A DNA stretch of 15,479 nucleotides from a virus (IMGVR_UViG_2695420487_000018), one strand, 5' to 3'. Positions 1-14,261 are shown, counted from the stretch's first letter. The notes: generated by a model from the sequence alone, not told the origin. Numbers and translations are program-made.

Positions 1-165
1 ATGGCAAAGCCGATCATCACGCTCAATGGCCTAAAAATCGTCATTATGTTGGGAATGCTGGTCATTATTCTCTGCGGTATCCGTTTTGCCGCCGAGATCA
101 TCGTGCCGTTTATTCTCGCATTATTTATTGCTGTTATATATAACTTATTTCACATAACACGTTGA
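1..165 (+). pseudogene. tqsA: Truncated 5' part of a host inner-membrane transporter gene (TqsA/YdgG-like); about 45 host-like codons, then 9 codons of AT-rich island DNA to a TGA
   Basis: ATG at 1; translation [45 protein letters not shown]... is a hydrophobic N-terminus I recognise from memory as E. coli-type TqsA (not searched). Composition switches abruptly to AT-rich at about 135-140. Confidence 0.45.
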
Positions 166-462
166 TTTAATTAAATAATTTTCACCACAAAAAGTGCCAA
201 AAATCGCAAAATGACTACACCAGTGACTACACCGTTCGGTGCACTGTATGAAACAACGTGGAACAAATAGACACAAGAAATATACAGGCGGATCATCTTT
301 CCAGGGGGAAGCGCACCAATTCATGAGGGGCGTTAATGTCGATATGGGGATCCCCACCTACCGGAATTTTTTTCCGGTTAAACGTTAATCAGGCTGGTGG
401 GCTTTACCTGTTCGGTAGGAGTTATGATTATCGTAATACCTTTCCCCCAATGGGGTAAAAGC

Positions 463-609
463 ATCAACCGTAACGAAAGTCGTTATGGTTGCCACTGATA
501 CCCCAAATTTGGGTATCACGAGTAAGACCCAAAATCTGGGTGTTACTCTTACTACCCAAACTACGGGTAGTTTCCGTAGTTTCATGGTCGAGTTGCAGAT
601 CTGCAACTC
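463..609. repeat. Array of dyad-symmetric sites: AACCGTAACG-N5-CGTTATGGTT (463-487), three ACCC-N7-GGGT sites centred at 507, 534 and 561 (27-bp spacing), and a perfect 20-bp palindrome GAGTTGCAGATCTGCAACTC (590-609)
   Basis: Read directly from the sequence; arms GATACCC/GGGTATC and CTACCC/GGGTAG are perfect reverse complements. Confidence 0.6.
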
Positions 610-902
610 CCCCATTAACCACAGGCGAATTTCCGCCTTCGGTCATTCCTTAATCATCTGCGTAATCATAATGATTATTCAGCAAGCGCAATTTTGCGCT
701 TTGCTTAAAGTTCAGCGAGTTACCGCGCCGACTTCCTCAAATTGAGGTTTCCGAAAATATCAGCGGGTTAGCGATTAAGCTGATCATTAATTAAACTGCG
801 AAAATTTCGTAGTTTGTGACTGTCTTTCAGGCAGCTTGTTAACAGTCCTCAGAAGCGAGGGATGTAGCCACCCATTTTTGGTCCGTCGGGAATATCAACC
901 AG

Positions 903-1184
903 TTACCGCCGCAACCGCTCCGGCTTCTTCCAGTGGTACGTTATTTTCTCCTTCTCCCGATACATCTCCACGCGGCGACGGTAGGCCAGCAACTCAAGAA
1001 CTCTGGTTCGTATGTTGCGCATATCCACGCCATTAAGTTCTATACCATCACGGCGCATCACCTCAGCAACAACACGCGCATAGTTTTCGGCTGTCACGCT
1101 GTCCGGCTGCGTGGCCTGTTCGTCAGCCTGCTGGCTGATTCCAGAGACGCGGCGGATTAATCGCAGTATTTCGGCTTCTGTCAT
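903..1184 (-). CDS. Hypothetical protein (93 aa), last gene of the packaging operon
   Basis: ORF starts 14 nt after the TerL stop, with GAGG about 9 nt upstream of the ATG; no family recognised. Confidence 0.5.
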   Translation of the reverse strand: MTEAEILRLIRRVSGISQQADEQATQPDSVTAENYARVVAEVMRRDGIELNGVDMRNIRTRVLELLAYRRRVEMYREKEKITYHWKKPERLRR

Positions 1185-1197
1185 GCTGCTGACCTCA

Positions 1198-2859
1198 TTA
1201 CACCCCGCTAAATTCTTCCAGTTTCTGGCGGTGGCTGTCGCTTATATCAAAAGCAAAATCCTCATGCTCTGCCTGGAATGTACCAAACGCCATCAGCGCC
1301 GCTACGCTCGGGTCTATCTTGTTCGGTGATTTTTTCTTGTTCGGCTTGATATTGGCGTTCGCGTCACTCTGCATCACGACGTTACTCATCGACCAGGACA
1401 ACACCGGATCGCCACGATGCACAATCACCCTGCGGTTAACAAAAACTTCGAACGATTTCGCCGCCGGACTGAATCTGAGGTAGGTTTGCGGGAACGGCTC
1501 CACCTCAAAACCTGCCCCCTGTAATTGCGTTCTGAGATGCGTGGCGTTCCACGTATCAAAGCCCACCAGCCTGATATTAAATTTCTCCGCGTCCTGCATG
1601 ATGTCATCTCTGATCCGGTCGTAATCAATGCAGTCGCCAGGTGTTGTGCGTATCCAGCCTGCTTTAGCCCACTGACGATAGACAGCGCGGTTTTTATTGG
1701 CGGGGTTCTGTAGCTGGAACTCCGGCAGATAATGACGGGAAACCAGCATAATGGTTTTACCTACCGGAAAGGCATAGCACACGCTGGAAATATCGCTTGT
1801 GGATGATAAATCCAGCCCCGCGTAACACTCCTGGCCGTGTAAATCTTCCTCCGTGAACGTTCCGGCACACTCAGCCCATGCGCCGTTACCCATCCACGGG
1901 GTAGTCCCCTGACACCAGATATTAAATCGCTTTGTCATCATCTCCACCCACTGCGACGGAATACCCCGCGCTTTCTGGATGGTTGAGGCCAGTTTTTCAC
2001 GATCCACGGAAACATCAATATTAGGGTTCGCCTTTATCCACATCGCCGGATCATCAACCTCGTTTTCGTCGTCCAGTTCGTAAATCAGTACAAAAATTGA
2101 ATCGTTAACCTCTTCGCCGTCCAGGATCTGGCAGCAATAATCATAGTGCTGCTTACAGGCTGAAACGACGTTGCTGCCTGATGTGGTAATGGCAAATAAC
2201 AGCCCTTCGGGACGTGCGCCCATCCCCAGCTCAAGCGCGGAATAAACGCCGTTATCGGGGTGCAAGTGGTATTCGTCCACGATGGAAAGGCTTGGGTTTG
2301 TGCCCTCGATGGTTGCCGCTTTTGCTGCCAGCGGCTTTAACAGGCTGTTGCTTTTCGGGTGTATCACCTTATGCGCCTGAATATTCACCCGCCTGCGTAA
2401 CGGTCGGGATAAAAGGCACATCTGACGCGCATCATCAAAGACGATCCGCGCCTGGTCACGGCTCACCGCTGCGGTGTAGATATCCTGCTGACCGTTCTCC
2501 ATAATCAGAAACCAGTTAGCCAGAATCGCGGCGGTCGTGGATTTCGCATTTTTGCGCGGCACTTCGATAAAGGCGCTCGTATATTTGCGCCGTCCGGTGG
2601 CCTTAACCTTAAAGCCGAGGATGCACGCAAAGGCGAACTGCTGCCACGGCTCCAGCTCAATGGGTCTGCCACGCATCGGTCCTTTTACGTGCGGGCACAC
2701 CCTGGAAAAGGCAATAAACCGCTCCACAACCTCACGATCGAACGTGTAAAGGGGGCTTTTAAGGTCCGAAAAGTACCGTTTAACAGCCTGTTTTAACCGT
2801 TTACAGGCCGGAATTTTGCCCGTTTTTACGTCTTCTGCGTACTTATTCCAGGCGGTCAA
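1198..2859 (-). CDS. terL: Terminase large subunit (HK97/Terminase_1-like)
   Basis: 553-aa ORF; N-terminal ATPase region with P-loop-like VPRKNAKST, C-terminal nuclease-like region; start overlaps the TerS 3' end by 17 nt. Confidence 0.9.
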   Translation of the reverse strand: MTAWNKYAEDVKTGKIPACKRLKQAVKRYFSDLKSPLYTFDREVVERFIAFSRVCPHVKGPMRGRPIELEPWQQFAFACILGFKVKATGRRKYTSAFIEVPRKNAKSTTAAILANWFLIMENGQQDIYTAAVSRDQARIVFDDARQMCLLSRPLRRRVNIQAHKVIHPKSNSLLKPLAAKAATIEGTNPSLSIVDEYHLHPDNGVYSALELGMGARPEGLLFAITTSGSNVVSACKQHYDYCCQILDGEEVNDSIFVLIYELDDENEVDDPAMWIKANPNIDVSVDREKLASTIQKARGIPSQWVEMMTKRFNIWCQGTTPWMGNGAWAECAGTFTEEDLHGQECYAGLDLSSTSDISSVCYAFPVGKTIMLVSRHYLPEFQLQNPANKNRAVYRQWAKAGWIRTTPGDCIDYDRIRDDIMQDAEKFNIRLVGFDTWNATHLRTQLQGAGFEVEPFPQTYLRFSPAAKSFEVFVNRRVIVHRGDPVLSWSMSNVVMQSDANANIKPNKKKSPNKIDPSVAALMAFGTFQAEHEDFAFDISDSHRQKLEEFSGV

Positions 2860-3199
2860 GCTCGTCCTCTTCTTCTGTTTCCGGTGGATTTTTACGGCGG
2901 CTTATCGGGTCAAAACCGAGCAAGGAGGCCATTTTTATCATCACTCTTTCCGCGTCGGATTTCGCGCTTAATGCGGGGTTTCTGCTCTCTCCGCCCTGAC
3001 TGTTAACAATGCTGAACCCGCGCGCCGCAAGGTCTGCGACGGCTTTCCGGTATATCGAGTAATTGACGCAATACAGTTCCAGATTACTCCAGTCGGCGGG
3101 AGTCAGGTCACCCCGTTCCGCAAGCGGCCGCGATTTTTCCCGCCACTGCTTCACGGCGATATCATCCAGGTAGGCGGGGGCTTTCGGTGGTCTTGCCAT
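2843..3199 (-). CDS. terS: Terminase small subunit (P27-family-like)
   Basis: 118-aa ORF directly upstream of and overlapping TerL; acidic C-terminal tail EEEDELDRLE; size and position typical of HK97-type TerS. Confidence 0.75.
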   Translation of the reverse strand: MARPPKAPAYLDDIAVKQWREKSRPLAERGDLTPADWSNLELYCVNYSIYRKAVADLAARGFSIVNSQGGESRNPALSAKSDAERVMIKMASLLGFDPISRRKNPPETEEEDELDRLE

Positions 3200-3322
3200 G
3201 CTTATTTTTTCGCCAGATTATTTTTCAAAAAATTCCCGTGCATAAAAATTTGAGGAGGCGTTCGGTGCCCGGCGGGGTCGGGTTTGTCCTGAAAACGCCC
3301 CCCACCCCGTCATACAGCCTCA

Positions 3323-3505
3323 TCAGCGATTGCGGAAACATTCCATAACCTCGCGGTCACGGTCGGTTAATCGCTTCGCTGTGATGCGTTCTGCGCGTCC
3401 TGACGCTTTATCTTTATGCCCTGTTTCCTGTGTCTTCCATGCGTCACGCTGCCTTATAAGTCCACGGATAAGGCGGTTTTGTTCCCGCTCATTCATCAGC
3501 GTCAT
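3323..3505 (-). CDS. Small basic hypothetical protein (about 57-60 aa) between HNH and TerS
   Basis: ATG at 3505 or 3496 lies just upstream of, and out of frame with, the HNH stop (3489-3491), suggesting coupling; translation M(TLM)NEREQNRLIRGLIRQRDAWKT... is Arg/Lys-rich. Only the 3' part of the longer 3323..3727 track ORF is used; weak SD. Confidence 0.3.
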   Translation of the reverse strand: MTLMNEREQNRLIRGLIRQRDAWKTQETGHKDKASGRAERITAKRLTDRDREVMECFRNR

Positions 3506-3929
3506 ACATCCAGTTATTGCGGTTAGCGGCCCGTTCTTCCTCTTCATGAAATCCACCTGCGGCACGCTTGCTTTTTGTTGCCGGATCAAGCCATTTCGTT
3601 TTCTGGTTATGACACGCCTGGCACAATGGTTGATGGTTCCATTCGGGCCAGAAGAGAACATCATCACCGCCATTAATCGGGATAATGTGATCCACCACCA
3701 CGGCGGGCGTATATATCCCCTTCTCAAGGCATCGCACGCATAACGGGTTTTTACTCAGATACATGGCGCGGTATTTGTCCCACTGTCTGGAGTACCCACG
3801 CGCGCGGCGGTGTCCTCGTCTGGCATCCTCTGCACGCCATGCCGCCCGCCTGTGCTCCTCACACTTGCCGGACTTCACGCGCCTGTTACAGCCTGGTTCT
3901 GTGCATCGTCTTAATGGTTGCCACGGCAT
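3489..3929 (-). CDS. HNH endonuclease (terminase-associated)
   Basis: 146-aa ORF with Cys pairs and the HNH core ...VVDHIIPINGGDD...NHQPLCQACHNQKT; start overlaps the upstream gene stop (TGATG). Confidence 0.85.
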   Translation of the reverse strand: MPWQPLRRCTEPGCNRRVKSGKCEEHRRAAWRAEDARRGHRRARGYSRQWDKYRAMYLSKNPLCVRCLEKGIYTPAVVVDHIIPINGGDDVLFWPEWNHQPLCQACHNQKTKWLDPATKSKRAAGGFHEEEERAANRNNWMYDADE

Positions 3930-4225
3930 CAGTACACCCCCACATCACGGTAAGCCGTCCAGAGCGCGCCAATCGTCATGGGTACGCGCGTTTTTGCGTT
4001 ATCCGCTACCAGCTGGCGATTCTCGTACAGGTGAGCGATAAACATCATGCAGCCAATCTTTATGGCTGGCGTGAACTCCAGCCCGTCATCAAAGCGCCTG
4101 CCTATATGTATCTGGCACGCCTCAAGCGATGCGGCAATGTATCCGCTGATTAACTGGTCTTCCTCGTCGCCATCGATGCGGCAATGGAGTTTCACTTCTT
4201 CCAGGGTGATAAGTTCTTCTGTCAT
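3929..4225 (-). CDS. Head-tail connector protein (gp6-like family)
   Basis: 98-aa ORF; N-terminal LITLEEVKLHCRIDGDEEDQLI resembles the gp6-like connector signature; ATGA overlap with the upstream gene. Confidence 0.65.
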   Translation of the reverse strand: MTEELITLEEVKLHCRIDGDEEDQLISGYIAASLEACQIHIGRRFDDGLEFTPAIKIGCMMFIAHLYENRQLVADNAKTRVPMTIGALWTAYRDVGVY

Positions 4226-4560
4226 TTTTCCGCGCCCTCACGACAAAGAATTTCAAGGCGTGTCCTGGCGGCATCCGGCAGCGGCTGCCCGATGATATTC
4301 AGTACACGCCCCGCCAGCGGCCCCGTATTGACCTTTATCCGGCTGGTGGCGTTGATGTCCTTCCTGTAGCGTATCCATATCCTTACCGTTCCAGTCGCCA
4401 GTTCTGCACCCGATGAAATGGCCTCCTTGCTGCTGATCATGTTCACGCTTGCCCAGAGTGTGTGACCGTCCACCCACGTTTCGAGTATTTCGCCGGTTAT
4501 ATCCCTGGTCTGTTTCAGGGTCTGAATCGTTACCCTGTCACGCAGTCGCCCTATGTTCAT
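4222..4560 (-). CDS. Head closure / head-tail joining protein (Phage_H_T_join-like)
   Basis: Track ORF 4222..4602; likely start is the ATG at 4560, overlapping the portal stop (ATGA). About 112 aa, MNIGRLRDRVTIQ...VRIWIRYR... resembles head-tail joining proteins. Confidence 0.6.
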   Translation of the reverse strand: MNIGRLRDRVTIQTLKQTRDITGEILETWVDGHTLWASVNMISSKEAISSGAELATGTVRIWIRYRKDINATSRIKVNTGPLAGRVLNIIGQPLPDAARTRLEILCREGAEK

Positions 4561-5768
4561 TCCGGTTTTTCTCCCTCGCTGATTTTTACTTCCTGTTTCC
4601 ATGCCTGGCTGAACTCATCACCACCATCACGCGGGGACAGCCCTTCACGTTCGCGGGCTTCGTTCGGGCACATAACGCCGGATTTGATGCCGCGTTCATA
4701 GGTGGCAAAGCGTTCGCCAGGTGTGGCCCGTAACAGGTCCGCGCTGTCAAACTCCACCTGATACCGGATACCAGGTACAGGTGAGGCCACCAGCAGGGCG
4801 TTTTTTATCTGCTGCTCAAAGTTCGCCAGCCACGGGCGCATCGTCATGGTGAGAAATGCGCGGCTTGCCTCGCTGAAATTGCTGTAGGTGCTGTTGCTGT
4901 ATTCCTGCAAAAAAATCGGCGAGACGTTGAACATTCGGGCGATGTCTTCAATGGTGAAGCGACGGGAGGCCAGCCATTCAGCATCCTGATTACTCATGCC
5001 CAGCTGCTGATAGCTCATACCCCCTTCAAGGATGGGCGTTTTTCCGGCGTTTCTGGCCCCTTTGTAGCGTTCCAGTGCGGCTAATGCCTGTTTGCCCTTC
5101 ACGCCGTCCAGCCATTCGCCTGACGTGATAACCCCTGCCGCCATCATGCCATCACGCATCACGCTCGCGCCGTGGCGTTGTTGGGCCAGCCCAAGCCCCA
5201 GCGATTCGCGGCAGATGGTTACAGGTGAGCGCCCCATAAAACCGTCATCTGTGGAGTAACGAAGGTGGAGAACCTCCCACGGTAAATAGTTGCGGGTGTT
5301 TCCGGTGTAGGCGTCAGTGATGCAGTAGCGCCAGTTATGCTCACCTGTCTGCTCCACGTTCACCGACTGCGGCGGGTAAGGATGTAAAGCCACCGGAAAA
5401 CCATCACGCCCCCACCGAATCACCGCATAAGCATTACCGTTTAACAGGCAGTGGCGGATCATCATTCGCTTAAACTGGTAGGGGGTTTGCCACGCGTTCG
5501 GGCGCTCGTTGAGGATGTGATCGACCGGATGAGAATCAAGCCACTCGCGGGCCTCCTTCCCCTTCTCATTGCGTACCAGGTACAGGTAACACGGCATGGT
5601 AGCCACCGCCTCAGAGATGACCGTCACGACGTTCATGACGGCGGGCAGTGATTCCGCTGTCCCCGATGATACGTACTCACCCGCCCCCGTGTTCGATGTG
5701 CCGGCCAGCGCCATAAACTCATCAAGCGTCATGCTGCGCTGCTCTTTTTTTCTTCTGAAAGGCCACAT
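4557..5768 (-). CDS. Portal protein (HK97 family)
   Basis: 403-aa ORF directly after the prohead protease gene; size and sequence character of HK97-type portals. Confidence 0.85.
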   Translation of the reverse strand: MWPFRRKKEQRSMTLDEFMALAGTSNTGAGEYVSSGTAESLPAVMNVVTVISEAVATMPCYLYLVRNEKGKEAREWLDSHPVDHILNERPNAWQTPYQFKRMMIRHCLLNGNAYAVIRWGRDGFPVALHPYPPQSVNVEQTGEHNWRYCITDAYTGNTRNYLPWEVLHLRYSTDDGFMGRSPVTICRESLGLGLAQQRHGASVMRDGMMAAGVITSGEWLDGVKGKQALAALERYKGARNAGKTPILEGGMSYQQLGMSNQDAEWLASRRFTIEDIARMFNVSPIFLQEYSNSTYSNFSEASRAFLTMTMRPWLANFEQQIKNALLVASPVPGIRYQVEFDSADLLRATPGERFATYERGIKSGVMCPNEAREREGLSPRDGGDEFSQAWKQEVKISEGEKPE

Positions 5769-5769
5769 A

Positions 5770-6327
5770 TCACACCCCCGCTAAATCCGCCCACCAGCGG
5801 CGATTATCCGCACGCGGCATTTTTTCGGGGTGCTGCTCGTACAGGGAGCGGCGGGCCAGCTCCACGCCGGAATCAGGGTAAGCCGGTACGGATGTAACGG
5901 TAATTTCGTACAGTTCCGCCACCAGCACGGTGCGCACGCATGGATCTGTTGTGGTATCCCATACATCCTTACGGGAGCGAAAGCCAAAGCTCATGCCGGA
6001 TATATCACCACGTTTAACCAGTTCGATAACGTCCCGCCCTGTGCTGGTATCCGGTGGGATCAGTTCAAAACGTAACCCTGTGTCATCCTCTTCCAGTCTC
6101 AGCGTACCGGAACGGGTGCGCCCCAGTAACATGCTGTGGTCATGCTCATACAGGCCGCGAACGTCATTACCCACCGCAAGCCATTCAGTAAACGCCCCCC
6201 GCTGGAATTTTTCGTAAAACTCCCCCCATAGCAGCTCTGAAAGGTTATCCCAGCGAACAACGTAGCCTGTAAGCGTGTTGCTGCCGCTGGTGGTGATTTC
6301 CGATGACCGGATTTCCATACTCATCAT
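5770..6327 (-). CDS. Prohead maturation protease (HK97 family, S78-like)
   Basis: 185-aa ORF between capsid and portal genes; N-terminal ...TLTGYVVRWDN... and internal EHD motif typical of HK97 prohead proteases. Confidence 0.8.
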   Translation of the reverse strand: MMSMEIRSSEITTSGSNTLTGYVVRWDNLSELLWGEFYEKFQRGAFTEWLAVGNDVRGLYEHDHSMLLGRTRSGTLRLEEDDTGLRFELIPPDTSTGRDVIELVKRGDISGMSFGFRSRKDVWDTTTDPCVRTVLVAELYEITVTSVPAYPDSGVELARRSLYEQHPEKMPRADNRRWWADLAGV

Positions 6328-6381
6328 AATTTTTTCACCTGTAAAACAGAGAAGGGGCTTTTTAGCCCCTTCGGTGTGCTG

Positions 6382-7539
6382 TTAATCGTCGTCCTGCGGC
6401 AGTTCCAGAATCTTTATAGCGTTCGAATCCACCACGCCACCGCCTAAATATTTCTGCGTGAAAATTTTGATAAAGCCCGGCTCTGTCAGGTTGTCCGGTC
6501 TGGTGCGCACGCCCGTTTCATGATCAACGATGTAATAACCGCGTTTGAAGTCACCCAGGGCGATAACGTTATCCGGCATAAATTCCAGATACTCCACCGG
6601 AAGCCCCAGCAACGTATCAGGATCACCCGCCTGTAAACGGTCGCGCCAGATGTAATCGCCGTTCGCGTTCTTCACCTTCTGAAGTTTTGCCGCCGTCGTG
6701 GAGTTAACCACCCAGACCGCGTTTTTGCGGTATTTTTTACGTAATGCAAATTTCAGGTCGATCAGCGGGTCCGCAGATGTCCACGCCAGAGATTCGGAAG
6801 GTTTAATTACCTGCAACGTACCAAAATCACGCTCTTTGTCGTTCTTCTCTGCACGGGGTACGGATAAAAAACCTTTTGCTTTTTTGTCACCGTCGCCCAC
6901 AACCAGATCGCTTTCTTCGGTTTCCGTGAAGGTGTCGCCAATCTCACCCGTCAGCCATGAAAGGATGTCCACATCGGAAAAATCCACGATTTCCTGTGTG
7001 GTGCGCGGGTACGCATAGACCGGATACAGCTTAATGCTCACCTCGTTAATCTGCGGGGTGCTGGTCTGTTCGCGTGCCTTACCCTCTTCACCGTGGTTAA
7101 CGGTCGCACCGCCAGCGGAAACAAGCTGCTTAAACTCGTTGCTGCTGATTTTCTTCACGGTACAGATGCGGCGCATGGTGGATTCATCCGCCAGCATTCG
7201 CATGATTTCGGTGTTCAGCTCGGGGATAACGGTATAACCACCATCAGCGGGAACGCCTGTACTTAATGCGCGGGTTTCACCTGTCAGGATGTAGTTGCGT
7301 AGTTCTGCGGGGTCAGTGGTCTGACTGCTTTTACCTGGCTTGCTGCGCTCTTCGTCTGCAATGGCTTCAAGGCGGGAAATGTCTTTATCGAGGGATTCAG
7401 CTTTAGCGCGTAATTCGTCAAATTTTGCGCCCTCAGCATCGTTAAGACTGCGGTTTTCTTTTTCCGCGTTCTCCAGCATGTCGCGCATCTGATTTTTAAT
7501 GGCGGTTTTCTGCTGGCGTAATTCGATTATTCTCGGCAT
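6382..7539 (-). CDS. Major capsid protein (HK97 fold) with N-terminal coiled-coil delta/scaffold domain
   Basis: 385-aa ORF; first ~100 aa are coiled-coil-like (IIELRQQKTAIKNQMRDMLENAEKENRSL...), followed by a capsid-like body. Confidence 0.85.
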   Translation of the reverse strand: MPRIIELRQQKTAIKNQMRDMLENAEKENRSLNDAEGAKFDELRAKAESLDKDISRLEAIADEERSKPGKSSQTTDPAELRNYILTGETRALSTGVPADGGYTVIPELNTEIMRMLADESTMRRICTVKKISSNEFKQLVSAGGATVNHGEEGKAREQTSTPQINEVSIKLYPVYAYPRTTQEIVDFSDVDILSWLTGEIGDTFTETEESDLVVGDGDKKAKGFLSVPRAEKNDKERDFGTLQVIKPSESLAWTSADPLIDLKFALRKKYRKNAVWVVNSTTAAKLQKVKNANGDYIWRDRLQAGDPDTLLGLPVEYLEFMPDNVIALGDFKRGYYIVDHETGVRTRPDNLTEPGFIKIFTQKYLGGGVVDSNAIKILELPQDDD

Positions 7540-7546
7540 AAAAAAA

Positions 7547-7576
7547 GTCCTGGGGTTAAGTAAGGAACTCCAGGAC
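7547..7576 (-). promoter_or_regulatory. Hairpin immediately upstream of the capsid gene start; its 3' arm contains the only SD-like AGGA and is followed by U7 then AUG
   Basis: Minus-strand RNA GUCCUGG-AGUU-CCUUACUU-AACC-CCAGGAC-UUUUUUU-AUG; 7-bp perfect stem plus 3 further pairs after one mismatch. Confidence 0.45.
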
Positions 7577-7629
7577 GCGGCAAAAACTCAACCGTTTTTC
7601 ATAAGGAAATCAGCAATCGCACCGTTCGT

Positions 7630-7677
7630 TTTCCCGCCTGGTAATGAATATTGGCGAGAACATTAACAGGCGGGAAA
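7630..7677 (-). other. Long imperfect hairpin in the capsid-operon leader (11-bp perfect stem TTTCCCGCCTG/CAGGCGGGAAA plus 5 inner pairs, 14-nt loop)
   Basis: Read directly from the sequence; no U-run follows on either strand. Confidence 0.5.
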
Positions 7678-7754
7678 GTGGCCCCAGCGTCCTGGCACCA
7701 CGGGCGAGAATAATCATGATTCAGTTCGGGTAAAATATGCCGATCCGCTCAGTG

Positions 7755-7779
7755 AACAACGTGGAACAACCACGAACAA
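7755..7779. promoter_or_regulatory. 25-bp dyad motif AACAACGTGGAACAACCACGAACAA (core CGTGG-AACAA-CCACG) upstream of the capsid operon; a second copy lies at 14170-14194 and a half-copy at 252-266
   Basis: Exact or near-exact matches found by eye (1 mismatch between the two full copies); both lie inside runs of 10-bp-phased ACAA/TGTT. Confidence 0.55.
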
Positions 7780-7796
7780 ATAATTTACAAAACATG

Positions 7797-7820
7797 ACAA
7801 AAAGCCGGATTGCTCCGGCT
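7797..7820 (-). terminator. Rho-independent terminator ending the replication/regulatory operon
   Basis: Minus-strand RNA AGCCGGA-GCAA-UCCGGCU followed by UUUUUGU, 7 nt after the stop of the 7827..8099 gene. Confidence 0.65.
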
Positions 7821-7826
7821 GTGTGA

Positions 7827-8099
7827 TTATCTGTCCTGGTAATTTCGCCATATTTCATCACCAGCACCATCCATACCCATTTCGGCATAAGTGCGATCGA
7901 CCGCCTTTTTCAGGTCTCCGTAATTATCCGGCGGCTCCGGTGGCCTCTGTGCCTTCCTGGAACATTCCAGCCGTCGCATCGTGATGTGATGCCGTTCCTT
8001 GTCTGTCTCCACCAGTTGCATGACTTCACCCCATCGCGCCGACGCTCTCCGGTAAAAGCCTTTCGCCTCCAGTTCTTCCGCTATGCGGTCATGTACCAT
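7827..8099 (-). CDS. Small hypothetical protein (about 90 aa); possibly a PerC/ANR-like regulator (uncertain)
   Basis: Track ORF 7827..8108 starts at GTG; the ATG at 8099 has GGGGTGGGGA upstream. Motif AEELEAKGFYRRASARWGEVM is reminiscent of PerC/ANR-type proteins, from memory only. Confidence 0.55.
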   Translation of the reverse strand: MVHDRIAEELEAKGFYRRASARWGEVMQLVETDKERHHITMRRLECSRKAQRPPEPPDNYGDLKKAVDRTYAEMGMDGAGDEIWRNYQDR

Positions 8100-8111
8100 C
8101 GTCCCCACCCC

Positions 8112-8522
8112 TCAGAACGGAATATCATCACCGTAAGGGTCATCGCCTTCCGCTGGTGGCTGATTACCCTGTGTGCCTGTGGTCTTGCGTCTGTTCCCGC
8201 CAGGACGTGCCGCACGGGCACTGATTACGCTGTCTGCAATAACCTGATACCCCCGCCGCGTTTCCCCGTTCTGTCCGGTCCACTGGCTTACCTGCATCGT
8301 GCCGGATACGCTGGCAACATCGCCTTTTTGATGTTTAGCCAGGAAATCGGCCTGTTTGCCAAATGCGATAACCGATAACCATAACGTCGCCTGTCCGTCA
8401 TGTGCCTGGCTGCATGGCAGCGATACCGCCATACGCGCCAGCGTCATCGGTGTTCCCTTGCTGGTCTGTTTTACCTGCGGGTCGTCCACCAGCCGCCCGT
8501 AAGCCGCTATCTGTGCTGTCAT
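8112..8522 (-). CDS. ssb: Single-stranded DNA-binding protein
   Basis: 136-aa ORF; OB-fold-like N-terminal region, Gly/Pro/Gln-rich linker, acidic C-terminal tail ending DDIPF (SSB signature); ATGA overlap with the upstream gene. Confidence 0.85.
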   Translation of the reverse strand: MTAQIAAYGRLVDDPQVKQTSKGTPMTLARMAVSLPCSQAHDGQATLWLSVIAFGKQADFLAKHQKGDVASVSGTMQVSQWTGQNGETRRGYQVIADSVISARAARPGGNRRKTTGTQGNQPPAEGDDPYGDDIPF

Positions 8523-8770
8523 GCTGTCTGCTCTCCGGTTTTAACGTTGATGGTTGTTACCTGTTCCGCTTCGGCAATCTCCCGTTCTGTCAACGTGGCA
8601 AAGTTTGCCGCTGCTGTGGTCATGAATGCGCTTATCAGGTCGGGATGTTCCTTCGCGTATCCTTCCCCTACATGTCGGTCTATCGTTCTGATTGCCACCT
8701 TTAAGGCCAGCTCTGTTATATCTAACGCTTTATATTTCGGCTCTGTTCTGTCTCTGCGTGTTCTGGTCAT
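8519..8770 (-). CDS. Hypothetical protein (about 83 aa) immediately downstream of the origin
   Basis: Track ORF 8519..8803; the ATG at 8770 has GAGGTGG upstream, and the earlier ATG lies in the AT-rich origin. Confidence 0.5.
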   Translation of the reverse strand: MTRTRRDRTEPKYKALDITELALKVAIRTIDRHVGEGYAKEHPDLISAFMTTAAANFATLTEREIAEAEQVTTINVKTGEQTA

Positions 8771-8803
8771 TTGCCACCTCAATTTATATATATATAGAAA
8801 CAT

Positions 8804-9120
8804 GTGCGGGTTATGCGGGTTATTGGGTTATCTTAGCGTGCTAACCATTTTTTATCCTTTTATATCAGCATGTTGCAAAACGCCCTGTTTATTATTTGCT
8901 CACCACATAACCCGCAAAACGCTCAAAATAACCCGCAAACGGGGTTTTTTCTGCGGGTTACGCATGACTGTCCGGTGTTACTTCAGTTATTCGCCTGCGG
9001 GTTATAATCGTGCTTTTGCGGGTTATAAATGCCCTTTTGCGGGTTACGTGCGGGTTATTGATTTCCTTTATATTCATGCGCTTAATACACTTATACACAG
9101 GATAACCCGCATAACCCGCA
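8804..9120. repeat. Iteron-type replication origin: about 12 copies of GCGGGTTA(T/C) (8 forward, 4 reverse) plus AT-rich tracts
   Basis: Forward copies at 8806, 8815, 8953, 8997, 9018, 9039, 9050 (and degenerate 8824); reverse ATAACCCGC at 8907, 8928, 9102, 9111; AT-rich 8780-8800 and 8840-8900; directly downstream of the rep gene. Confidence 0.8.
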
Positions 9121-9142
9121 ATTTTTTTCCTCACACAGGGGA

Positions 9143-11275
9143 TTAATCTTCATCATCAGGCTGGAACATCAGCACGTAAAAAACATGCTGCTTACCCCCA
9201 ATCTTGCCCAGCGCCTTTTTTTTGTATCGGCGATCGCTTCCCTTCTCCAGCATTCCGGCAGCATCCAGGGCACGCGCAAAATGCGCCGGATTAAATCCCT
9301 TCGCTATCTCACTCTCAAACACGTGCGGGAACGTGTAATAGCGCATCTCGTCATCTTCGTTGCGAATGCTCCCTTTTCTGTATCCGGCAAGCTCTTTAAT
9401 CGGTAAATCACGCTCATCTGTATTGGGGTACGGAAGGTAGCGGCTAAACCCAAACGACGACAAAAACGCCTCAGCCTGTTCAACCATCTGTTTAAATTCC
9501 CTGTTACCTGTGCCGAACTCCTTCACCCAGGCATTAAAGTTATGCTGTATCGCGTCGCGGCATTCCTGCACGACCCAGCCAGTTACATGACCGGAAAGCA
9601 CAAGCGCGGCCTCCAGTATGGCGAAACGTTCACCCACGCGGTGGACCTGCTCGCCGTAACTCTCCGGTATCAGGTTGCGCCACCGTTCGCGGCATTCCCT
9701 TACCGTGTCCTTTGCCTCCTGCTGGTGGCCTGCCAGCCATTTAACCCACTCACGACCCGCCGCCCCGTGATTTGCTGTCCAGGCATCCTTTAACGCGTCA
9801 GCATGTTCCTTACCGTTGCTGTATTCGTGAAATTTCGTGGCTTTTTCCATCGGAACGTTAAGCAGTCGGACAAGCTGCCCCGCCTTAACTTTTATCCCCT
9901 CACTTTTGAGGAATGTCTCAACGTCCATTTCTCCGGTGCTGATTGCCACCGTTCGCCAGTGTTTGATCTCCCTGTTGCCGCCATCCTTCGCCCCCTGCAA
10001 TTTCCCTGAACCGTTAAACAGCGTATAAGCAGACGTTGACACTTCCCGCGCATTTCCGGCCTGGCCTATCTCATCCAGTGGTAAAAGCCCGTCATTATGG
10101 GCCTCGGCCTCATTGGCAATACCTAACGCCGTGCCGTACCAGGTCAGCCGCTGCGCGTCCGGCTCTCCCCATAAACTTGATGCGATGTTCTGCGTGGTGG
10201 TCTTACCTGCCGATGACTGTTCGAAAAGATGCACCCCGAAGCCGTCAGCACCCACAAGGCCAATTAAAGGCGCTGCCAGTGACGTTGCCACACCCAGTAT
10301 CATTGAGGCATTACCGCCAGCCAGCCGCGCCACGCTGTCGCGCCAGCCATCCGCCGTGCCCGCCACGGAATAACCGTTAATCGCGGCGCTTTTTCCGGTA
10401 AACAGGATCGGTTTTTCAGATTCACCAATGATCGAACCGTCCGGCATGATGTACGCGCCAAAATGCCAGCCCGTTGTTGTGCTTAACTGCCATTCCTCAT
10501 GGCTTCCGCTTAACTGCATCCAGTCCGCCAGGATTGCCCTGTATTTGCCGTTGGTTGTCACGTTCAGCCCGTGATCTTTAAGTAACCGCCAGCCGTCACG
10601 GTCGCCGATACCACCACACGGGATCGCCATTGTGATGACTTTATGGTTTGCGGTTTTTTTCCAGCGCATCACGCGGTAATGCTCTTTACCGATCGTCCCC
10701 GTTCCCAGTAGTTCAAGCGGAGAACATAACCACGTCTCAGGCCGGATAATTTCGCCTGACTGCTTATCCACTTTGGGCGTTACCCAGAAAACACCATCGG
10801 CGCGACTTTCAACGCGTGGCTTTAATTCGTCATCGCTATGGCTTCCGGTATCTTTTTTCTTTACCGGAAACTCAATAACCAGACCATCAGAAAGATTCTG
10901 CCGCTCACGGGCCAGATATTCGCGCCAGTTCTCCACCTTCTGACCGTGCATTCCTTCGGGGTAAAAATTTGCGTCCTGAATATCTGCCGCCGCCAGCTTC
11001 TGACCAATCTTTTTGGTCTCCACCAAATCCAGTTCTCCGGCCTGGTACAGCCTTACGCGTTTTTTTCCATCCGGAACAATTTTCAGCGCATCAAGTTCGG
11101 CAAGCTGATTTGGCCCAAGCCACACAGGCGGAACATTATCGCCGGATGCGGGGCCATCCTGCTCCTGCCATTGTTTCGCGTGCGACCAGGCATCACTACC
11201 CGCGAAAATAATTACCTCTGTGTCTTTGTGTTTTATTCCGCGTGGCTGTTTTTTTACGTTCGGTGCCAGTTTCAT
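9143..11275 (-). CDS. Replication initiator, primase/helicase-type (P-loop NTPase; DUF927/D5-like family suspected)
   Basis: 710-aa ORF; Walker A-like FEQSSAGKTT; position immediately upstream of the iterons matches pri-rep genes of satellites. Confidence 0.8.
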   Translation of the reverse strand: MKLAPNVKKQPRGIKHKDTEVIIFAGSDAWSHAKQWQEQDGPASGDNVPPVWLGPNQLAELDALKIVPDGKKRVRLYQAGELDLVETKKIGQKLAAADIQDANFYPEGMHGQKVENWREYLARERQNLSDGLVIEFPVKKKDTGSHSDDELKPRVESRADGVFWVTPKVDKQSGEIIRPETWLCSPLELLGTGTIGKEHYRVMRWKKTANHKVITMAIPCGGIGDRDGWRLLKDHGLNVTTNGKYRAILADWMQLSGSHEEWQLSTTTGWHFGAYIMPDGSIIGESEKPILFTGKSAAINGYSVAGTADGWRDSVARLAGGNASMILGVATSLAAPLIGLVGADGFGVHLFEQSSAGKTTTQNIASSLWGEPDAQRLTWYGTALGIANEAEAHNDGLLPLDEIGQAGNAREVSTSAYTLFNGSGKLQGAKDGGNREIKHWRTVAISTGEMDVETFLKSEGIKVKAGQLVRLLNVPMEKATKFHEYSNGKEHADALKDAWTANHGAAGREWVKWLAGHQQEAKDTVRECRERWRNLIPESYGEQVHRVGERFAILEAALVLSGHVTGWVVQECRDAIQHNFNAWVKEFGTGNREFKQMVEQAEAFLSSFGFSRYLPYPNTDERDLPIKELAGYRKGSIRNEDDEMRYYTFPHVFESEIAKGFNPAHFARALDAAGMLEKGSDRRYKKKALGKIGGKQHVFYVLMFQPDDED

Positions 11276-11571
11276 TTCTTACCCCTGAATACGTTAAGCA
11301 TCTTTTTTATTTCCTGAATATTGGCGCGTGCTTTCTCCCTGCTGGTTGGTTTACTGCGGGGCGCTGCCTGTACCAGAGAAAAATCACGCCGGAACTGATA
11401 AACAGGCATCACGCAATCATATTCGTAGCCTTCACGATGGTAGGTTACGCGCCGTTCCTCCACGCCCTTAATCATTACCGTGCCGCCGTACTGGTCGCGG
11501 TAAATATCCCCGCGCATGAATTTAGTGCGAGTTTTGCCGCTGTCAGTTAAGCCAGGATATTTAAGTTTCAT
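11272..11571 (-). CDS. Hypothetical protein (99 aa)
   Basis: ORF ends overlapping the rep start; GGGGA upstream of the ATG. Confidence 0.55.
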   Translation of the reverse strand: MKLKYPGLTDSGKTRTKFMRGDIYRDQYGGTVMIKGVEERRVTYHREGYEYDCVMPVYQFRRDFSLVQAAPRSKPTSREKARANIQEIKKMLNVFRGKK

Positions 11572-11576
11572 TATTT

Positions 11577-11840
11577 TTATTCCCCGATAGCGTGACCTGA
11601 TAAGCCGTTAATCTTCTCTGATATGCTCTCTATTTTGCTGGTTGAACTATCCAGTAATTCAGAAACGGCTAATATTAATCTTGCAGTTGATTCATCGCGT
11701 TCATTATTCACCAGCGACTGAAGCCACATATTCATTACTTCGTTTGCTGCGTTGTTTAAAGATATTGCGCTGTTGGCAAGGCTTCTTAATTCACTGGTCG
11801 CCAGTTTATTATTTTTCATAGCGTTCGGCTCTCTCATCAA
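11577..11840 (-). CDS. Hypothetical small helical protein (80-87 aa), AT-rich gene
   Basis: ORF track; alternative start at 11819; local GC visibly lower than the island average. Confidence 0.5.
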   Translation of the reverse strand: MMREPNAMKNNKLATSELRSLANSAISLNNAANEVMNMWLQSLVNNERDESTARLILAVSELLDSSTSKIESISEKINGLSGHAIGE

Positions 11841-12000
11841 TTAACCACAGCGCAACACTTCCTGACAGTTTTGCCAGAAGGCCAGCTAATGCGGATATAT
11901 CACCATCATTTAATTTATCAGGGTATACCTCAAGAAGGCGGCAAATAATTTCTGTCTGGTGCGCACGTTCAGCGGCTTCGTGTAATGTAATTTCCTTCAT
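11809..12000 (-). CDS. Hypothetical small protein (63 aa), AT-rich gene
   Basis: ATG at 12000 overlaps the upstream gene stop (TAATG). Confidence 0.5.
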   Translation of the reverse strand: MKEITLHEAAERAHQTEIICRLLEVYPDKLNDGDISALAGLLAKLSGSVALWLIDERAERYEK

Positions 12001-12185
12001 TAATGCACCTCTTTTAATTCATACACTGCTGAAATAATGACTTGTGATAAGCCATATTCTGATGATTCGCTTCTCACCGCAGCAATAGCCGTCTGAACAT
12101 TAACAGCCTTCACATTCTGAGCGATACCAATTGTGTGGCCTAGTGGGTTAACAGCGCTGGCAAATACACGGAAGGTTTTAAGCAC
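12000..12185 (-). CDS. Hypothetical small protein (about 62 aa)
   Basis: Track ORF 12000..12215 begins at TTG; the GTG at 12185 has AGGGGG 7 nt upstream and overlaps the upstream stop. Confidence 0.4.
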   Translation of the reverse strand: MLKTFRVFASAVNPLGHTIGIAQNVKAVNVQTAIAAVRSESSEYGLSQVIISAVYELKEVH

Positions 12186-12642
12186 GGCACACCCCCTGAC
12201 GAATACGGGCGACAAAAATCAGATGTGCGTGCGGCAGCTGGGCGCGGGCTTCGCGTTCAGTGGCTGCGGTAACGGTGTAAATATCAATGCTGCTGTGGTG
12301 GCACTGCATAAAGCGCCAGACAAAGTAAGGGCGTGCGGATACAGCCATGTGAAAGGCTCCCAGATGAATTTTAAGGAGTCTCGCTACTACGCTGCTAAAC
12401 ATGGTGGCGAGACGTAACAGGGTTAGCAGACTGGTCATCTGGAAACCAGCGAGCACAAAGGCTCCCCCGTTACGCCCCGCCATAATGCGGGTATGGGTAG
12501 GTTTACGGACACAAAAAAACCGCTTATCGGATGTGGGCGGCTGTCCGCCAGATGTATTCAGGCTGCTAAACCCGGTCGCCATGTGGGCGACGGGGGAAGC
12601 ATACAGCCCCGTGATAATTTTTTGCAAGCGGTTTTTACGCAT
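12178..12642 (-). CDS. Hypothetical protein; C-terminal about 55 aa paralogous to the 12635..12907 product
   Basis: Track ORF 12178..12684; ATG at 12642. C-terminal motifs FVWRF, TEREAR, ARIRQG are shared with the upstream gene, with third-position differences (GTC/GTG, CGC/CGT). Confidence 0.45.
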   Translation of the reverse strand: MRKNRLQKIITGLYASPVAHMATGFSSLNTSGGQPPTSDKRFFCVRKPTHTRIMAGRNGGAFVLAGFQMTSLLTLLRLATMFSSVVARLLKIHLGAFHMAVSARPYFVWRFMQCHHSSIDIYTVTAATEREARAQLPHAHLIFVARIRQGVCRA

Positions 12643-12907
12643 GATGTGACCCCTGACGAATACGGGCGGCAAATACAGCAACACAACCTGACGGGCAACG
12701 GCTACGCGCTTCGCGTTCCGTCCAGGCGGTTACGTGGATGATTTGAGATTCTCCGGCACTCAGTGCCAGAAAACGCCACACAAAGGCCGTTTGTGTGTGT
12801 ACAAGGTGTGGTATATGATTTACAGCAACCATAACGGCTCCTAGTTTACGTTGTTGGTTAGAAGCCCTGCGAGTGGTAACGACACTTGCGGGGCTTTGTC
12901 TTTTCAT
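12635..12907 (-). CDS. Hypothetical small protein (65-90 aa), first gene of the leftward operon; paralog of the next gene's C-terminal domain
   Basis: ATG at 12907 (AAGG upstream) or 12832 (AGGAG 5 nt upstream); same conserved motifs as the downstream paralog. Confidence 0.5.
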   Translation of the reverse strand: MKRQSPASVVTTRRASNQQRKLGAVMVAVNHIPHLVHTQTAFVWRFLALSAGESQIIHVTAWTEREARSRCPSGCVAVFAARIRQGSHHA

Positions 12908-12923
12908 CGATTACCTTGATAAA

Positions 12924-13006
12924 GGTGTCAGCCACTATATTAGTAACGGGTGTCAGCCACGTCAATAGTGTTTTTCCGTTTTCTTGTGTGTATACTGTCA
13001 GCCACC
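12924..13006. promoter_or_regulatory. Divergent promoter/operator region: leftward promoter TTGACG-N17-TAATAT (minus strand), rightward -10 TATACT, and three direct repeats TGTCAGCCAC
   Basis: Minus-strand -35 is rc of 12960-12965 and -10 is rc of 12937-12942 with a 17-nt spacer. Repeats at 12926-12935, 12951-12960 and 12996-13005 overlap promoter elements on both strands. Confidence 0.6.
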
Positions 13007-13026
13007 TAATAACGAGGAAATCAGAT

Positions 13027-13206
13027 ATGGCAACAAAAGCAGTTAATGCAAAATCCAAAAAGCTTGAGGCTCGAGTACCACACGCAATAGCTGATGCTGT
13101 AGAAAATTTAAAGGAAGATGGCGAAAGTACAGGGCAATTTATCGTTTCGGCACTTGAAGGCGAGATCAAACGCCGCCAGCGCCGCAAGGCCAAAGAATCA
13201 GAATAA
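13027..13206 (+). CDS. Small DNA-binding protein, ribbon-helix-helix-like (59 aa); candidate regulator of the switch
   Basis: GAGGA 8 nt upstream of the ATG; pattern KKLEARVPHAIADAVENLKEDGESTGQFIVSALEGEI fits a beta-strand plus two helices; basic C-terminal tail. Confidence 0.55.
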   Translation: MATKAVNAKSKKLEARVPHAIADAVENLKEDGESTGQFIVSALEGEIKRRQRRKAKESE

Positions 13207-13248
13207 TCACTATCAGCGCCGTGGTGTGAGGTATTACGGCGCATTGCT

Positions 13249-13437
13249 ATGCAGGACAACACAATGACCGATAAAGAATTGACCAAAACATTATCACCGG
13301 CACGGAAAAGACGGCGCAGAAAGATAGAGCATGAATCAGAAAGATTCGCACCATGTGCTTTTGCCCTTGAGCAATTCCTTAAAGAGTACAGGGAAAAGCG
13401 CTCATTGCAGGTATGGCAACGAACTGAACCAGACTGA
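13249..13437 (+). CDS. Possible small basic protein (62 aa)
   Basis: ORF between the RHH-like gene and the plus-strand terminator; no convincing SD. Confidence 0.25.
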   Translation: MQDNTMTDKELTKTLSPARKRRRRKIEHESERFAPCAFALEQFLKEYREKRSLQVWQRTEPD

Positions 13438-13532
13438 TTGCATTGCCCACCAGCCTGATAGCGGCTATCATCCCCGTGCTTATGTTTGGGATCACACACA
13501 CAAACGGCGCAGCGGGTTATCTGTTCAGAAAG

Positions 13533-13560
13533 GCGGCTCCATTTCGGGGCCGCTTTTTTT
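13533..13560 (+). terminator. Rho-independent terminator of the rightward unit
   Basis: GCGGCTCC-ATTTC-GGGGCCGC (8-bp stem with one G-U) followed by TTTTTTT. Confidence 0.7.
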
Positions 13561-13706
13561 ATACCTGAAAAACCCCAATTTTGTTGTTTTTCAGTTTCAC
13601 CAGGGCGAACGAATCCCCGCCCACGTTCTGGCGTATATTCAATCTTCATGGTTATAGCTCTGTGTTCAGATGATTGATGTGTGGCGGCTGCGTGCCGCCA
13701 GCGTGA

Positions 13707-13895
13707 TTAATGAACTGCCTTGCAGCTATCCTTCCAGGCCAGAACCTCGGATAAAGACCAGCCAACGGAACGACCGCCAAGTTTACGACGTGATGGGAAT
13801 TGTCCGGCCTTTTCCAGGCGGTAGCGACACGTACGGCTAAGGCCGGTTAGTTTTTCGCATTCTTTTTCACGTATAAACCGATCAGTGCTTAACAC
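13707..13895 (-). CDS. alpA: AlpA-family transcriptional regulator (excisionase-like HTH)
   Basis: 62-aa ORF ...KECEKLTGLSRTCRYRLEKAGQFPSRRKLGGRSVGWSLSEVLAWK... matches the AlpA pattern; GTG start with AGGGGGG 6 nt upstream; sits next to int. Confidence 0.8.
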   Translation of the reverse strand: MLSTDRFIREKECEKLTGLSRTCRYRLEKAGQFPSRRKLGGRSVGWSLSEVLAWKDSCKAVH

Positions 13896-14047
13896 TATTG
13901 CCCCCCCTTTCGTTTCTTAAAGAGTCATCAGGTGTCTTATTGTGTCGTATTGTTCCCGCTAGAGTGATGAATGGCAAATATTGAGGATGTATGATTTACA
14001 GAAAATGAAACAGTAAGAATAAAATCTTTTAAATTCATGTTAATACA

Positions 14048-14094
14048 AAGGCATAAAATATTGTTTCATGCCTTTTTTCTCGCTCTTTAAAGAG
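14048..14094. other. Hairpin AAGGCAT-N13-ATGCCTT followed by TTTTCT on the plus strand, then a perfect 12-bp palindrome CTCTTTAAAGAG (14083-14094)
   Basis: Read directly from the sequence; lies between int and alpA; the strand on which it would terminate is ambiguous. Confidence 0.4.
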
Positions 14095-14169
14095 TGATTC
14101 GCTAGTGTATAAAAAACCAGTGACACATTAAAAATCAGCCACTTATAAATCTGTATGCTTTTTCGCCTC

Positions 14170-14220
14170 TTGTTCGTGGTTGTTCCACATTGTTGCTCAT
14201 TGTTGCACGTTGTATCTGTT
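14170..14220. promoter_or_regulatory. Second copy of the 25-bp dyad motif (rc AACAATGTGGAACAACCACGAACAA) within five 10-bp-phased TGTT units, upstream of alpA
   Basis: 14171-14220 reads tgttcgtggt/tgttccacat/tgttgctcat/tgttgcacgt/tgtatctgtt; one mismatch relative to the 7755-7779 copy. Confidence 0.55.
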
Positions 14221-14261
14221 CGCATATACAGTATGCGCATACTGAAAAAACACGAAAAAAA

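Follow-up and report, generated by a model that had tools for sequence, protein, structure and literature searches.

A 15.5-kb island in Escherichia coli tqsA, very probably a further allele of the capsid-forming satellite EcCIEDL933

What kind of genetic element carries its own HK97-type head and DNA packaging genes and no tail or lysis genes? The question is raised by a viral DNA stretch of 15,479 nt, IMGVR_UViG_2695420487_000018 (hereafter the window, meaning the whole stretch analysed), which an initial annotation, made from the sequence alone, read as a capsid-forming phage-inducible chromosomal island (cf-PICI) with a head and terminase module at positions 903-7539. Our analysis points in the same direction: the window very probably holds nearly all of a 15.5-kb cf-PICI of the EcCIEDL933 lineage, inserted in the tqsA gene of Escherichia coli. 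The element is not new, because it is about 97% identical to EcCIEDL933, a prototype already published and experimentally dissected. It is a further allele of that prototype, within a family that has been public since 2022.

Borders, composition and relatives of the island

Two copies of a 9-bp direct repeat, TGCTGTTAT, delimit 15,538 bp inside tqsA and form the attachment (att) core of the island, in agreement with the total of about 15 kb initially proposed. The copy at the terL-side junction lies at 129-137 and the other one 188 bp past the window end, at extended coordinate 15667-15675, where it was read in the Logan contig ERR134528_247, which is 100% identical to window positions 2178-15479 and runs on past the window end. 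Positions 1-137 (plus strand) are chromosomal and correspond to the 5′ fragment of tqsA, an autoinducer-2 (AI-2) transporter gene split by the island; the fragment is so annotated in the 99%-identical copy of strain Z1323HEC0393 (NZ_CP148357), where mdtJI follows on this side. Beyond the integrase, the Logan contig continues into the 3′ part of tqsA and then into pntBA, ydgH and ydgI. Because tqsA halves and housekeeping genes flank the island on both sides, the contiguous tail or lysis genes that the initial annotation had named as the finding to speak against a satellite are absent; neither the att-bounded 15.5 kb nor its flanks contain a tail, lysis or protein-repressor module. Within the window, scans with Pfam, PHROGs and NCBIfam gave no ORF (open reading frame) matching tail, baseplate, holin or endolysin families, as first proposed, and the stretches that remain unassigned (138-902, 7540-7826, 12908-13706 and 13896-14261) are each below 0.8 kb and therefore too short for a tail module. 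Tandem TGACTACACC repeats at 212-234 are probably arm-type binding sites of the integrase; the same 23-mer is found again past int in both the Z1323HEC0393 copy and the Logan contig, placing the repeats inside both island ends, and a pair resembling them flanks EcCIEDL933.

How well does the content of the island fit the definition of a cf-PICI? According to published criteria (PMC10085698), all 11 core components are present and none of the forbidden ones is. The island has a terminal integrase, an AlpA-type regulator, a primase-replicase with an adjacent origin, its own major capsid protein (MCP), protease and portal, a head closure/adaptor and a connector (Phage_HCP/TIGR01563 and Phage_connect_1), and its own HNH, TerS and TerL, and its 15,538 bp with att repeats at both ends fall within the range of about 10-18 kb. 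All substantial genes of the window are on the minus strand, where their order is the one published for proteobacterial cf-PICIs (capsid-protease-portal-connectors, then hnh-terS-terL), and the MCP, protease and portal ORFs have the full length of their prototype counterparts.

That prototype, EcCIEDL933, resides in E. coli O157:H7 EDL933 (Alqurainy et al. 2022, bioRxiv 10.1101/2022.09.08.507074; He et al. 2025, bioRxiv 10.1101/2025.02.11.637232). The EDL933 genome matches the window at 96.5% identity over 92% of its length (megablast). Alignment with EcCIEDL933 itself gave 96.9% DNA identity for the whole head and packaging module (891-7825) and 96.9-97.0% for 891-12216. Gene set and gene order are the same from int through a 93-aa gene placed after terL, and both elements belong to the 15.5-kb size class. 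At the protein level, identity reaches 383/385 residues for MCP, 399/403 (99.0%) for the portal, 546/553 (98.7%) for TerL, 117/118 (99.2%) for TerS, 144/146 (98.6%) for HNH, 97/98 (99%) for the connector, 179/185 (96.8%) for the protease, 105/112 (93.8%) for the closure/adaptor protein and 62/62 for AlpA, with 96.9% for the primase-replicase and 86.7% for PerC. The two elements also differ in several respects: i) the window copy is inserted in tqsA, whereas EcCIEDL933 occupies the phoQ/roxA intergenic region, the integrases being 92% identical; ii) a 434-nt C4/Icd cassette of the window copy is absent from EcCIEDL933; iii) about 300 bp found between the PerC and MCP genes in EDL933 are missing here; iv) the gene 3′ of alpA is truncated in the window copy, where the opposite strand carries a YlcI/YnfO-like ORF; and v) the terminal non-coding stretch 138-890 aligns only in part (156-493 at 89%). 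These differences are ordinary within-family mosaicism.

Elements of this kind are widespread. Among 5,426 complete E. coli genomes, 102 cover at least 80% of the window by megablast, and the element recurs, at roughly 15.5 kb, in many genomes and in at least two different att sites. A search of 50,697 phage records gave only a handful of DNA-level matches: those of whole-genome size are about 15-16.5 kb long, and another is part of a 106-kb Klebsiella record. The tqsA copy of Z1323HEC0393 is 98.9-99.9% identical to the window and shares its att site, without the C4/Icd cassette. This strain carries two cf-PICIs, one in tqsA and one in phoQ/roxA, with identical portal, closure, connector and HNH proteins (same WP accessions) and different MCP, TerS and TerL alleles; their replication proteins are of the DUF927 family and a RepA-type helicase, respectively. 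The Shigella flexneri SFBU1023 copy (CP182556, 2744-3898) has a premature stop in MCP, where W is changed to a stop in RKNAV*VVNS, and its TerS aligns only from residue 8 on. This copy appears to be decaying, unlike the window copy, which is intact.

Head and packaging genes

The MCP, prohead protease, portal, two connector/closure proteins, HNH, TerS and TerL that the initial annotation had assigned to this region were all recovered intact by Pfam and NCBIfam searches, on the minus strand and with unchanged coordinates. The MCP (6382-7539; Phage_capsid, 2e-61) has the HK97 fold with an N-terminal delta domain and matches PDB entry 9gyi at E 1.4e-255. In that entry, a single 385-aa 'major head protein' is present as four chains, in keeping with the T=4 asymmetric unit reported for EcCIEDL933, and the STGVPAD maturation motif of the window MCP stands at residue 93, the published cleavage point. 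Next come the HK97-family prohead serine protease (5770-6327; Peptidase_S78, 6e-47), the portal (4557-5768; Phage_portal, 4e-90) and the 112-aa head closure/head-tail adaptor protein (4222-4560; Phage_HCP, 1e-23, and TIGR01563), which matches the nuclear magnetic resonance structure 2kz4, a 'putative head-tail adaptor', at 6e-68. They are followed by the gp6-like head-tail connector (3929-4225; Phage_connect_1, 2e-11), the HNH endonuclease, a packaging cofactor (3489-3929; PF01844, 2e-8), the small terminase TerS of the P27 family (2843-3199; Terminase_4, 7e-23, and TIGR01558 in NCBIfam) and the large terminase TerL with a TTG start (1198-2859; Pfam TerL_ATPase, 1e-25, and TerL_nuclease, 2e-50). 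Compared with EcCIEDL933, the ratio of nonsynonymous to synonymous substitution rates (dN/dS) ranges from 0.02 to 0.19 across MCP, portal, TerL, connector and closure, the latter with 0.19, a pattern that speaks for strong purifying selection on the packaging genes.

Are these genes a single, tightly coupled operon, as initially proposed? The four start/stop overlaps on which the proposal was based do exist (ATGA at portal/closure and at closure/connector, TGATG at connector/HNH and 17 nt at TerS/TerL). Coupling is looser at two junctions: 54 nt with a GC-rich hairpin separate the MCP and protease genes, and a gap of 123 nt lies upstream of terS. The hairpin (6351-6372, minus strand) came out of the scan as a terminator-like site and may be an attenuator. 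No promoters were placed, because a consensus promoter scan of the whole window found 10, no better than the 15.3 expected from shuffles. The 123-nt gap at 3200-3322, GC-rich and then AT-rich, is a candidate cos site, as the analogy with HNH-dependent cos phages suggests. In the related 16.5-kb element vB_KppS-Ant, deposited as a linear sequence, both termini fall in the homologous gap; this counts for little, given that deposited sequences are often rotated so as to begin at terS.

The gene inventory first drawn up had missed one member of the module, a 60-aa gene of phrog_3173 at 3323-3505 (minus strand), which is annotated in the Z1323HEC0393 tqsA copy and in a further related locus (L002). 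It provides a fifth overlap, of 17 nt, with the HNH gene. The protein is identical to the EDL933 copy at 60/60 residues and has phrog_3173 as its only known family. Since MCP is gene 1786 of EcCIEDL933 and the 60-aa ORF stands six genes further along the operon, gene counting indicates that it is probably gene 1792, a hypothetical gene whose mutation severely reduces transfer of the prototype (prototype literature).

A related head and packaging module is that of phage HK97, with the same families: Phage_capsid, Peptidase_S78, Phage_portal, a gp6-like connector and an HNH-dependent terminase. The window portal matches the 424-aa portal chains 8cez/8fql, which we take to be HK97 gp3, at 8e-31; when the window MCP was searched against PDB sequences, HK97 gp5 did not come up at E 0.001. 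A published overlay of the EcCIEDL933 MCP on that of HK97 gives a root-mean-square deviation of about 1 Å (capsid-structure literature). However, the gene order is MCP-protease-portal-closure-connector in the window and portal-protease-MCP-connector-closure in HK97, the capsid is T=4 in EcCIEDL933 and T=7 in HK97, and the window element, unlike HK97, encodes no tail, lysis or immunity proteins. Two other elements, Escherichia phage vB_KppS-Ant (LR881103.1, 16,548 bp) and Pasteurella phage Pmp8 (OR544139, 15.3 kb), are cf-PICIs deposited as phages. Their order is alike (int, regulator, primase, MCP, protease, portal, two connectors, HNH, small ORF, TerS, TerL), their DNA is about 66-70% identical to the window over about half of the module, and their accessory gene after terL is unlike the 93-aa gene of the window. 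In vB_KppS-Ant, a 765-aa ORF after terL is annotated as 'tail length tape measure protein'; the ORF is probably accessory, or else wrongly annotated.

Could the head genes instead be functionless leftovers of an HK97-like prophage in decay, from which the tail, lysis and immunity genes have been deleted? Their membership of the head and terminase families of HK97-type phages would be expected from such an origin, and the MCP stop in the S. flexneri relative would fit it. We nevertheless regard it as highly improbable. None of the ten packaging ORFs is disrupted, and purifying selection on them is strong. The att repeats are exact, the size of about 15.5 kb recurs across many genomes and in more than one att site, the half with the regulation and replication genes is of PICI type (AlpA, DUF927 primase-replicase, iterons) and not of prophage type, the few DNA matches in the phage records include, at whole-genome size, only elements of about 15-16.5 kb, and the prototype works in experiments. 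A head module domesticated in the manner of a gene transfer agent (GTA), packaging random host DNA and not itself, has to be considered because, besides the EcCIEDL933 entry, the only solved capsid that the MCP matched is that of the Rhodobacter capsulatus GTA (6tb9/6tba, E 1e-46), whose portal was matched as well by the window portal. But GTAs encode tails and lack int and rep, whereas this island has its own integrase, att sites, origin, replicase, TerS and HNH and no tail genes, and the prototype packages solely its own unit-length DNA; the chance that the island is of this kind is minimal.

We give just as little credit to the possibility that the island makes no capsids of its own, whether as a classical PICI or as a P4-like satellite remodelling those of its helper. 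It does have int, alpA, pri-rep, PerC and Icd-like genes in common with classical E. coli PICIs, together with an RNA of P4-CI/C4 type, but the portal, adaptor, connector and TerL genes that it carries are exclusion components of the PICI model (PMC10085698), and no family of P4 sid, psu or delta type was matched in any scan. As far as the sequence goes, nothing in it is at odds with a cf-PICI, the reading that was first proposed and that the 11 core components, the proteobacterial gene order and the 96.9% identity of the module to that of EcCIEDL933 bear out. Some caution is nevertheless in order, since the function of the window copy is deduced from homology, the seven substitutions of its adaptor with respect to EDL933 may bear on which helper this allele uses, and related copies can decay, as in S. 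flexneri.

How would such an island move? In EcCIEDL933, AlpA is required for helper-dependent induction, and mutating each packaging gene abolishes transfer and leaves replication and the helper unaffected. Helper capsid mutants have no effect on the island, and helper tail mutants abolish its transfer: the small capsids are made by the island and the tails come from the helper phage HK106. The prototype capsid, whose T=4 structure is solved, measures 47.5 nm and contains 240 copies of MCP, each cleaved at residue 93. Its dimensions suit 15.5 kb of DNA and leave no room for the helper genome of 41.5 kb, and EcCIEDL933 packages its own unit-length DNA exclusively. More generally, cf-PICIs release tail-less, DNA-filled heads able to join tails of different phages. 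Taking these experiments on the 97%-identical prototype as a guide, we infer the following cycle for the window copy. A helper phage of the HK106/HK446 type would activate AlpA; the island would then be excised by its own integrase and replicate at its iteron origin by means of a primase-replicase and a single-strand DNA-binding protein (SSB) that it encodes itself. Once the packaging operon is on, the 385-aa MCP would assemble on the portal and the S78 protease would trim its first 92 residues, yielding a small T=4 head, into which the island's TerS-TerL-HNH, aided by the 60-aa protein, would cut and package island DNA only, in a cos-type, unit-length manner. The closure/adaptor protein and the gp6-like connector would complete the neck, and the DNA-filled, tail-less heads would join helper tails, the tail setting which bacteria are injected.

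The 93-aa gene after terL

At 903-1184 (minus strand), the terminal gene of the island encodes a 93-aa protein for which the initial annotation saw no recognisable function. This holds: Pfam, NCBIfam, PADLOC and the PDB sequence search gave no match, and PHROGs gave only phrog_1561, a family of unknown function. Judging from its conserved length and a dN/dS of 0.27, the ORF is a real gene. It is 88% identical to the EDL933 copy, which makes it the least conserved protein of 903-7539, next to a TerL with 98.7%. The family is narrow, with 37 representative clusters in 1.8 billion proteins, mostly fragments and nearly all highly identical to the E. coli query. Among species-representative genomes, a single locus came up, in S. 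flexneri, and tblastn against the 50,697 phage records gave only one weak match, with none at E 1e-3 in the vB_KppS-Ant and Pmp8 records. An AlphaFold model based on a 12-sequence alignment predicts three helices (pLDDT 68), for which Foldseek found nothing better than E 2 in the PDB.

Could this protein be a specificity or adaptor factor, as had been suggested? Such a role is unlikely, although unsupported rather than disproved, because experiments have assigned the tail specificity of cf-PICIs to their adaptor and connector genes (cf-PICI literature) and because a 45%-identical homolog ends a different PICI-like island that lacks a recognisable HK97-type head module. That island (Logan SRR1522090_107, 1-8261; also loci L012 and L014) encodes a DUF4222 protein, an AAA_25 (RepA-type) helicase, ProQ, PerC, a weakly TerS-like protein and four proteins of unknown-function PHROGs, one of them of 678 aa with transglycosylase/tape-measure-like similarity. 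The position of the 93-aa gene is the one where cf-PICIs carry variable accessory genes (cf-PICI literature).

Integration, replication and the C4 RNA cassette

The other half of the island contains the integration, regulation and replication genes, and profile searches confirmed the int, alpA and pri-rep genes first noticed. The tyrosine integrase (14262-15479, minus strand; Arm-DNA-bind_3 and Phage_integrase) lacks only its first 4 codons, which lie outside the window; in the Z1323HEC0393 tqsA copy and in locus L006 it is annotated as 409 aa, with a start 12 nt past the window end. AlpA is encoded at 13707-13895 (minus strand; Phage_AlpA, 5e-17), the DUF927-family primase-replicase at 9143-11275 (minus strand; PF06048, 1e-48) and SSB at 8112-8522 (minus strand; PF00436, 1e-16); a DUF4222 protein is also encoded upstream of the packaging module. 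The iteron origin proposed initially is confirmed: the 9-mer TAACCCGCA occurs in 11 exact copies, in both orientations and all within 8805-9120, against 0.16 expected by chance, and an AT-rich tract lies at 8779-8800. A PerC-family regulator (7827-8099, minus strand; PF06069, 3e-43) is encoded directly upstream of the packaging operon, from which a terminator-like hairpin 3′ of its gene (7803-7820, minus strand) parts it. According to the statement in PMC11773190 that cites Porter 2005, the PerC-like protein of EcCIEDL933 has no effect on LEE1.

Two further stretches deserve mention. Downstream of alpA (12905-13706), a variable gene that encodes 247 aa in EDL933 is cut to about 150 N-terminal codons, and the rest of it is replaced by a segment with the YlcI/YnfO-family ORF (13027-13206, plus strand). 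At the opposite end of the island, the 765 bp that separate the last gene from the att core (138-902) contain no convincing ORF; two mechanical ORFs there have no family match, and Rfam gave no match even at E 1. Short inverted repeats of the CCCAAA/TGGGT type occur around 500-560.

The proposal that the island has no cI-type repressor is correct as far as proteins are concerned, but a C4/P4-CI-type antisense immunity RNA is predicted at 12400-12487 (minus strand; Rfam RF01695, 72.7 bits against a gathering score of 45). It is part of the 434-nt cassette at 12217-12649, upstream of the replication genes, together with an a1/b1-type target element of the C4 RNA (12555-12604, minus strand; RF03163, E 1e-9, whose 45.5 bits are just below the gathering score of 46.7) and a second Icd-like ORF (12178-12402, minus strand; NF033153, 9e-15). 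The first Icd-like ORF (12635-12832, minus strand; NF033153, 6e-18) is common to EcCIEDL933. A 153-aa 'Icd-like' ORF that PGAP draws across the C4 RNA is probably an over-call. Rfam finds no C4 RNA in the Z1323HEC0393 tqsA copy or in L002, both of which lack the cassette; the complete genome that matches the window best is among those without it. The cassette is present, on the other hand, in 116 other E. coli genomes, including the second cf-PICI of Z1323HEC0393. The exact 154-aa cassette ORF is indexed in 75 assembly-collection blocks; 24 contigs were read, and in the six places displayed its context is that of the window. Relatives of the P4 CI immunity RNA are detected in Gram-negative PICIs by the Rfam C4 and isrK models (PMC10111431). 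It is conceivable, if rather doubtful, that the 60-aa and 93-aa proteins are satellite-specific factors, the latter acting in cos/att handling or in the interplay with the helper, and that the C4 cassette provides RNA-based immunity or incompatibility between co-resident cf-PICIs. At least one strain, Z1323HEC0393, carries two of these islands.

The points of fresh interest in this allele are minor ones: its C4-type RNA cassette in the regulatory arm, its integration in tqsA and the still unexplained genes for the 93-aa and 60-aa proteins. In addition, the window serves as a positive control, given that the reading of the raw sequence alone yielded the correct architecture and family. The wider importance lies with the family to which the island very probably belongs: by means of tail-less heads that take various phage tails, cf-PICIs shift DNA, including virulence-associated genes, across strains and even genera.

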